The notes below the pieces were generated by a model. That model did not search any database and had not been told where the DNA came from. It saw nothing but the letters and a program-made list of their open reading frames with translations. Position numbers and translations under genes: made by a program. Below, one piece after another: positions 4,613 through 6,231 of a DNA stretch of 64,000 nt. This stretch comes from Actinomycetota bacterium (lineage in GTDB: Bacteria > Actinomycetota > UBA4738 > HRBIN12). Positions within the stretch are counted from its first letter, which is position 1; every line of letters begins with the position of its first letter. The stretch is from positions 1,006,717-1,070,716 of the forward strand of contig BPGL01000001.1 of assembly GCA_026003015.1 (NCBI GenBank), in the 5' to 3' direction.

Positions 4613-6231
4613 TCAGTGCACGTGGTCGTGACCGCCGCCGCCCTTCGGCTCCTCCTCCTCGGGCTTCTCGACGACGGCCGACTCCGCGGTGAGGACGATC
4701 GCCGCGATCGAGGCGGCGTTCTGCAGCGCCGAACGGGTGACCTTCGCCGGGTCGATGATCCCGGCCTTCACCATGTCGACCCACTCGCCCGTCGCGGCGT
4801 CGAACCCGCGCCCGTCGCGCTCCTCCCGGATCCGCTGGACGATCAGCGCCCCCTCGTATCCGGCGTTCTGCGCGATCCGACGAGCGGGCTCCGACAGGGC
4901 CTCGCGGACGATCCGAACGCCGGTGGCCTCGTCGCCCTCGAGCGAGAGCGCGTCGAGCGCCTCCTCGGCGCGGATCAGGGTGACCCCCCCGCCGGCGACG
5001 ATCCCTTCCTCGACGGCCGCTCGGGTCGCCGACACCGCGTCCTCGATCCGGTGCTTCTTCTCCTTGAGCTCGACCTCGGTCGCCGCCCCGACCTTGATCA
5101 CCGCCACGCCGCCGGAGAGCTTGGCGAGGCGCTCCTGCAGCTTCTCGCGGTCCCAGTCGGAGTCGGTCTTCTCGATCTCGGCCTTGATCTGGTTGATCCG
5201 GCCCTGGATGTCGGCCTCCTTGCCGCCCCCTCGACGATCGTCGTCGTCGTCCTTCGTCGACGACGACCTTGCGCGCCGGCCGAGCAGGTCCGAGGCGTCG
5301 CGTTCTCGAGCTTCAGGCCGACCTCCTCGGAGATCACCTGACCGCCGGTGAGGATCGCCATGTCCTGCAGCATCGCCTTGCGGCGGTCGCCGAAGCCCGG
5401 CGCCTTCACCGCGGCGGCGTTGAACGTGCCGCGGATCTTGTTCACGACGAGGGTGGCGAGCGCCTCACCCTCCACGTCCTCGGCGATCACCACGAGCGGC
5501 TTGCCGGCCTGGAGCACCTTCTCGAGCACCGGAAGCAGCTCCTGCGCGCTCGAGACCTTCTTGTTCACGAGCAGGACGTAGGGGTCCTCCAGGACCGCCT
5601 CCATGCGCTCCTGGTCGGTGATGAAGTACGGGGAGATGTAGCCCTTGTCGAACTGCATCCCCTCGGTGAACTCGAGCTCGATCCCGAAGGTGTTCGACTC
5701 CTCGACGGTGATCACGCCGTCCTTGCCGACCTTGTCCATCGCCTCGGCGATCACCTCGCCGATCGTGCGGTCGGCCGCCGAGATCGCCGCGACCTGCGCG
5801 ATCTCGTCCTTGGACTCGATGTCCTTCGCGAGCTCCTTGATCCGCTCGACGGCGGCCTCGACCGCCTTCTCGATGCCGCGCTTGAGCGCCATCGGGTTCG
5901 CACCGGCCGCGACGTTCTTGAGGCCCGCGTGCATCATCGCGCGGGCGAGGACCGTGGCGGTCGTGGTGCCGTCGCCCGCCACGTCGTTCGTCTTGGTCGC
6001 GACCTCCTTGGTGAGCTGGGCCCCCATGTTCTCCCAGGGGTCCTCGAGCTCGATCTCCTTGGCGATCGTGACCCCGTCGTTCGTGATCGTGGGAGCGCCC
6101 CACTTCTTGTCCAGGACCACGTTCTGGCCCTTCGGGCCGAGCGTGATCGCGACCGCGTCGGCGAGTCGGTCCACGCCGGCCTCCAGGGCCCGGCGCGCGT
6201 CCTCGCCGAACTTCAGCAGCTTGGCAGCCAC
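4613..6231 (-). pseudogene. groEL: GroEL1-type chaperonin (operonic with groES, His-containing C-terminus ...GGGGHDHVH). The reading frame is disrupted.
   Basis: The N-terminal 330 codons sit in one frame (ORF 5098..6231). The C-terminal part runs from about 5220 to 4613 in another frame. The 1619-nt span is not a multiple of 3. The segment 5221-5300 reads as garbled (cgtcgtcgtcgt / cgacgacgac) with several apparent indels. Confidence 0.6.

Follow-up and report, generated by a model that had tools for sequence, protein, structure and literature searches.

The break in the reading frame of the groEL gene in the 64,000-nucleotide stretch of actinobacterial DNA analysed here (the window) is very probably a local artefact of the consensus or the assembly, situated in what appears to be an ordinary and functional heat-shock operon. 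This explanation follows from two lines of evidence: three independent assemblies carry the gene in frame while being otherwise identical to the window, and the window contains four other private insertions that shift the frame and that all affect homopolymers. Judged from these sequence comparisons, the break would not represent real biology, and we reject the reading of the gene as a pseudogene. The uninterrupted form of 538 amino acids that other samples contain, or an allelic variant of this form that is likewise in frame, is most likely the real groEL.

The gene is located 70 nt downstream of groES, on the same strand, with its start at 6231. The CIRCE operator that is found upstream of groES corresponds to a pattern for which the window holds one exact match, versus none in 100 shuffles. 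The parts of the operon can be described as follows, where L002 and L003 denote metagenome contigs of the same population that are introduced below:

6629 to 6655, upstream of groES: CIRCE operator, TTAGCACTC-N9-GAGTGCTAA, without mismatches.
6302 to 6598, minus strand: groES, intact, 98 amino acids (NF001530, 161 bits versus a cut-off of 136).
6231 to 4613, minus strand: groEL, groES-linked, spanning 1619 nt, with the stop codon at 4615 to 4613.
6231 to 5098, minus strand: N-terminal frame of groEL, 377 amino acids, with a stop at 5098.
5302 to 6231, minus strand: 5' part of groEL (around codons 1-310), equal to the intact population copy, with no differences from L002 and L003 upstream of 5301.
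5209 to 5301, minus strand: anomalous patch of 93 nt, with six single-nucleotide indels and ten substitutions.
4613 to 5208, minus strand: 3' part of groEL (around codons 341-538 and the stop), in the +2 frame, with the tail GGGGHDHVH, equal to the intact population copy.

The preliminary description of this DNA had reported a groEL frame that is broken by a cluster of indels, and a span of 1619 nt that is not divisible by three. Both statements were confirmed. The span from 6231 to 4613 leaves a remainder of two, the first frame is normal up to ...GLKLENAT and then reads as nonsense until the stop at 5098, and the fragments in the two frames match complementary parts of the GroEL models (profile positions 1-339 and 315-530). 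As written, they score 529.5 and 278.9 bits, and neither reaches the TIGR02348 cut-off of 582.1. An alignment to L003 placed four inserted bases at 5296, 5292, 5258 and 5248 and a deletion of one base each at 5275 and 5224, which makes six indels within 73 nt and a net change of +2. The earlier estimate of about five indels in 5221-5300 was close, although the actual count is six and the affected stretch is 5209-5301. The frames, described earlier as differing between codons 1-330 and about 370-539, split at around codon 312 and rejoin at around codon 336. Ten substitutions within the patch had escaped notice (5301, 5288, 5279, 5274, 5262, 5261, 5242, 5233, 5227 and 5209). All 16 differences are confined to 5209-5301 and the other 1526 nt of groEL are unchanged.

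An exact-protein look-up with GroES yielded five JGI metagenome contigs (L001-L005), of which L001, L002 and L003 are short-read contigs from three different metagenome samples. L002 corresponds to window positions 4776-12598 and L003 to 300-7875; both are 100% identical to the window outside 5209-5301, and for L003 this includes the complete stretch from 5208 down to 300, with zero differences. The 16 differences are common to L002, L003 and L001, the contig from the third sample, and the covering contigs agree among themselves. All three contigs are in frame across the patch. In L003 an uninterrupted GroEL of 538 amino acids has been called, with the same neighbours as in the window: the gene downstream encodes an ELFV-type dehydrogenase and the one upstream is Wzz/ParA-like. 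The broken allele was absent from every independent contig examined, and no record of the broken product of 377 amino acids was found by exact look-up. Short-read contigs of the population often stop inside groEL (at window positions 4733, 4776, 5448 and 5611). Furthermore, a JGI contig of 2.7 kb (L179, positions 600-2651) encodes a GGM-tailed GroEL of 683 amino acids (P0002) with an internal duplication of around 145 residues, which is probably a misassembly. The contig ends and the internal duplication together indicate that groEL is a hard spot for metagenome assemblers.

The region upstream of the groES CIRCE shows some variation of its own. The window contains a perfect direct repeat of 38 nt at 6680-6717 and 6753-6790, with a spacing of 73 nt. 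The same arrangement is present in L002-L004, and L001 and L005 have one copy and are 73 nt shorter. The difference in copy number represents either a length polymorphism of the promoter region or a collapse of the repeat.

To extend the comparison, additional contigs of the population were collected from JGI and Logan by look-ups with L16, a methyltransferase, a 302-aa protein and AcpS. The contigs cover window positions 300-22663 and 31810-59495, with a depth of two or more near-identical contigs over 44,253 nt. A difference was considered private to the window when every covering contig disagreed with the window at that position. In this way, 16 private differences were counted in the groEL patch versus around seven in the rest of these 44,253 nt. 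The latter comprise three transitions (20373, 20421 and 52782) and four insertions of a single nucleotide (32291, 32576, 35006 and 35018). Given the resulting background rate of around 1.6e-4 per nt, around 0.015 private differences are expected in 93 nt versus the 16 observed, and the clustering within the groEL patch is far beyond chance.

The four private insertions all extend a run of C or G and are found in the following genes:

35808 to 34267, minus strand: nnr, encoding an NAD(P)H-hydrate repair enzyme with the domains YjeF_N and Carb_kinase; the affected stretch is 34969-35018.
35006 (G4 to G5) and 35018 (G2 to G3), minus strand: window-private insertions that split nnr into a YjeF_N and a Carb_kinase ORF.
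32576 (C5 to C6), minus strand: window-private insertion in tsaB, missing from L186-L188, which encode a TsaB of 235 amino acids.
32291 (G4 to G5), minus strand: window-private insertion in the overlap of the tsaB 3' end and the rimI 5' end, missing from L186-L188.

Nnr is intact in L186-L189, where it has 516 amino acids, and the extra base at 35018 is missing from seven contigs. The tsaB and rimI genes are part of a tsaE-tsaB-rimI-tsaD cluster, in which the insertions shift tsaB and the start of rimI. Intact versions of nnr, tsaB and rimI occur in three to seven independent Logan and JGI assemblies. Moreover, the nnr and tsaB/rimI spots were flagged independently by a frame-scoring scan. Several other segment ends appeared in this Viterbi scan, and those with a low-scoring tail behind them (e.g. 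8437, 23702 and 47201) do not represent frameshifts. Between 23.8 and 31.8 kb, where contig coverage is lacking, the Pfam domains are full-length and encoded in single frames, and no further breaks were found in that region.

Homopolymer indels that fragment gene calls are a known residual error in nanopore-type consensus sequences (PMC9262707). With nnr, tsaB and rimI broken by private homopolymer insertions, the window has the character of such an indel-prone consensus, and the sparse occurrence of these insertions suggests, we infer, a long-read assembly or an imperfectly polished one. Considering that the genome is otherwise base-for-base identical to that of the population, it is not credible that groEL, nnr, tsaB and rimI were really lost all at once. 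The possibility of a locally poor assembly, which the preliminary description had raised for groEL, is therefore supported by these insertions as well as by the three independent in-frame assemblies.

Simple homopolymer error does not cover the groEL patch as a whole, since four of its six indels are unlike the other errors in the window and changes in homopolymer length account for only two of the six. The ten substitutions have a distinct character. Seven are synonymous and affect the third codon position (GAT to GAC, GGT to GGC, GCC to GCG, GTG to GTC, ACC to ACG, GTG to GTC and GGC to GGG), three are conservative and affect the first position (T to A, I to V and V to I), and the second position is not affected at all. 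By our own calculation, the chance that at least seven out of ten random changes fall on third positions is around 0.02. Half of the substitutions (5/10) are swaps between C and G. Such swaps typically arise when sequences diverge over a long time under very high GC3, and they are not characteristic of fresh mutations or common read errors. The synonymous or conservative nature of the substitutions and the C/G swaps argue for an allele that has been under selection and against decay. The replacement residues A and V of the repaired patch are also present in relatives, for instance in P0007. When the six indels are removed, a GroEL of 538 amino acids is obtained that matches TIGR02348 over profile positions 1-526 with 842.6 bits (cut-off 582.1), and the intact population copy (P0001) scores 841.9 bits. 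On sequence grounds the patch looks like a stretch of a different functional groEL allele, around 11-14% divergent, to which six single-base errors were added. For the first two insertions, one possible reading is that both alleles were kept next to each other (ACC CTG and ACG CTC, giving ACGCCTCGG). A mixed consensus would agree with this pattern, although the remaining four indels do not obey such a rule.

The source of the divergent allele was sought in several ways. The repaired patch was compared with 167 groEL loci from genomes and metagenomes. None of these surpassed the native allele, which differs from the patch at 13 positions, the next best loci differing at 15-16. The loci compared include the 89%-identical P0007 (contig L178) and the GGM-tailed P0002, and neither was closer than the native allele. 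A gapped exact pattern that fits both the broken and the repaired version retrieved no matches among the metagenome contigs. Within the 64-kb window, tblastn revealed neither a second copy of the patch nor a second groEL.

Two mechanisms that could have altered the sequence were considered and rejected. Template switching at a quasipalindrome does not apply, because both arms have changed and neither arm corresponds to the native partner arm when this is reverse-complemented. DGR-like mutagenesis does not apply either, because the substitutions are not adenine-specific and a template repeat is missing. The patch in the window does contain (GTC)n/(GAC)n runs and a 13-bp hairpin, the latter being missing from the native sequence, and the folding z-scores are unremarkable.

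As to the origin of the patch, we infer that the consensus at 5209-5301 may have been built from reads that were conflicting or poorly supported. The most likely source would be a divergent functional groEL allele, whether contributed by another strain in the community, by a related species or through cross-mapped reads. Such a source would leave mostly synonymous substitutions, and six uncorrected errors of one base would have been added on top of these. Several routes can be envisaged. A strain with a short recombinant patch may have been assembled together with the dominant strain, leading to a mixed-haplotype consensus; short reads of other community members may have cross-mapped onto this very conserved stretch during polishing; or the polishing may have been reference-based.

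A specific form of the artefact explanation holds that the substitutions are real and only the indels are errors, the patch being a natural in-frame recombinant stretch acquired from a relative. In that case the polishing or consensus step would fail at the patch, as reads of the dominant allele cannot align over such dense differences. We regard this as a serious possibility, with a probability somewhat short of even. It agrees with the substitution pattern, with the fact that relatives, P0007 among them, also have A and V, and with the retention of both alleles that we read in the first two insertions (ACGCCTCGG). The few private SNPs elsewhere would in addition mark the window as a distinct strain. 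On the other hand, the in-frame variant allele is missing from the metagenome contigs and from the 167 loci, and cross-mapped foreign reads or reference-based polishing would explain the substitutions equally.

Explanations in which the gene is truly inactive fare much worse. The preliminary description had suggested a decaying groEL1 copy and had called this plausible, and a gradual pseudogenisation, with indels piling up in a redundant gene under relaxed selection, would indeed account for the broken frame and for the fact that the C-terminal 200 codons can only be reached by a frameshift. Decay would leave changes all along the gene, however, and the other 1526 nt of groEL are free of them, as are groES, the perfect CIRCE and the 12 kb of flanking sequence. 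This lack of any other change in groEL or in the 12 kb around it contradicts gradual decay and leaves the earlier suggestion unsupported. Moreover, the substitutions in the patch are synonymous in seven out of ten cases and spare the second codon position, and the gene is intact in three samples of the same population. We consider the probability of gradual decay to be negligible for practical purposes.

A very recent and real inactivation of groEL1 in one strain can also be imagined. In that case a decayed groEL fragment or a paralogue elsewhere in the genome would have served, in one complex event, as the donor for a short-patch gene conversion that brought in a divergent stretch of 93 nt together with its indels, and the strain would have survived on a second groEL. 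The sharp borders of the patch are in line with such an event, and a donor that was once functional and decayed later would bring along both the selected-looking synonymous divergence and the indels. There is also a precedent for the required redundancy, as two sources (bioRxiv 10.1101/766162; PMC11978752) describe that the His-tailed GroEL1 paralogues of mycobacteria coexist with an essential GGM-tailed paralogue. Nevertheless, a donor copy was found neither in the window nor in the collections searched, and the broken allele is present in no independent contig. In addition, conversion at groEL would leave aside the four other private frameshifting insertions, which all concern homopolymer length and reside in the unrelated genes tsaB, rimI and nnr. 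Such a conversion therefore seems very unlikely.

The comparison with known systems leads to a similar weighing. The errors of nanopore-type or poorly polished assemblies likewise consist of single-base indels that fragment gene calls and that are private to one assembly. The indels in the window are likewise not found in the short-read assemblies of the population, and four of the ten lie in C or G runs of 2-5 bases. The groEL cluster differs in that it is unusually dense (six indels in 73 nt) and comes with ten allele-like substitutions, and something more than homopolymer miscalling is needed for the patch, for instance a mixture of haplotypes, cross-mapping or polishing against a reference. 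With the true groEL pseudogenes of bacteria that have multiple cpn60 genes, the window gene shares the interrupted frame of a groEL paralogue. It differs from them by the absence of scattered decay, the perfect conservation of regulatory and flanking sequence, the presence of an intact allele in the population and the co-occurrence of errors in unrelated genes. The frame break thus matches the known behaviour of assembly errors and not any known biological pattern of pseudogenes.

With respect to its type, the gene resembles the actinobacterial GroEL1 (Cpn60.1). The two have in common the membership of the Cpn60/GroEL family, a groES located 70 nt upstream, the CIRCE operator and a C-terminus that is His-rich and has no Gly-Met repeats; the window gene differs by its short His tail, with three His. 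Mycobacterial GroEL1 is characterized in two publications (bioRxiv 10.1101/766162; PMC3076238) as groES-linked and provided with a His-rich tail, and the window gene fits this description. The earlier label of a GroEL1-type protein thus holds, considering the groES-groEL operon, the perfect CIRCE and the His-rich tail ...GGGGHDHVH, which lacks GGM repeats. Relatives at 85-90% identity carry the tails GGHGHMH or GGHGHSH. The GGM-tailed groEL2 that would accompany a GroEL1, and whose presence the preliminary description had presumed, is missing from the 64-kb window. The closest species-representative genomes among the matches listed are uncultured Actinomycetota MAGs, with 84-87% protein identity, and protein-guided scans of genome and metagenome contigs recovered relatives that were at most 87% identical among the matches listed.

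Taken at face value, the sequence would present an uncultured actinobacterium with a decaying core heat-shock chaperonin, and such readings would inflate false pseudogene counts. The finding of a probable consensus error averts this misreading and flags the source assembly as one that needs polishing. The apparent presence of a divergent, selected groEL allele in the patch hints at strain-level mosaicism or at the recruitment of reads across species at a highly conserved gene. Were the gene conversion discussed above true after all, it would imply that a His-tailed GroEL1 is dispensable in nature and that conversion templated by a pseudogene can kill a chaperonin gene.

Some further observations were made in other parts of the window. 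At the 3' end of rpsC (around 55040-55170), the C-terminal repeat region of S3 varies in length within the population in an in-frame manner, giving proteins of 302, 314, 321 and 328 amino acids. A gene encoding a VWA-domain protein is located between map and infA (45917-47317). It is intact in the window and in L166/L172, with 425 amino acids, and split into two ORFs in L173/L174, with single-base differences near 46290, 46924, 47203 and 47220. These splits could be contig errors or real variation. Finally, the regions around 900-1500 and 8600-31000 contain a large locus for a cell-envelope polysaccharide, with genes for several sulfotransferases (Sulfotransfer_1/3), Wzz/Wzy, a flippase, glycosyltransferases and epimerases and with an APS kinase nearby, which suggests that this uncultured actinobacterium produces a sulfated exopolysaccharide, as predicted from the gene content.
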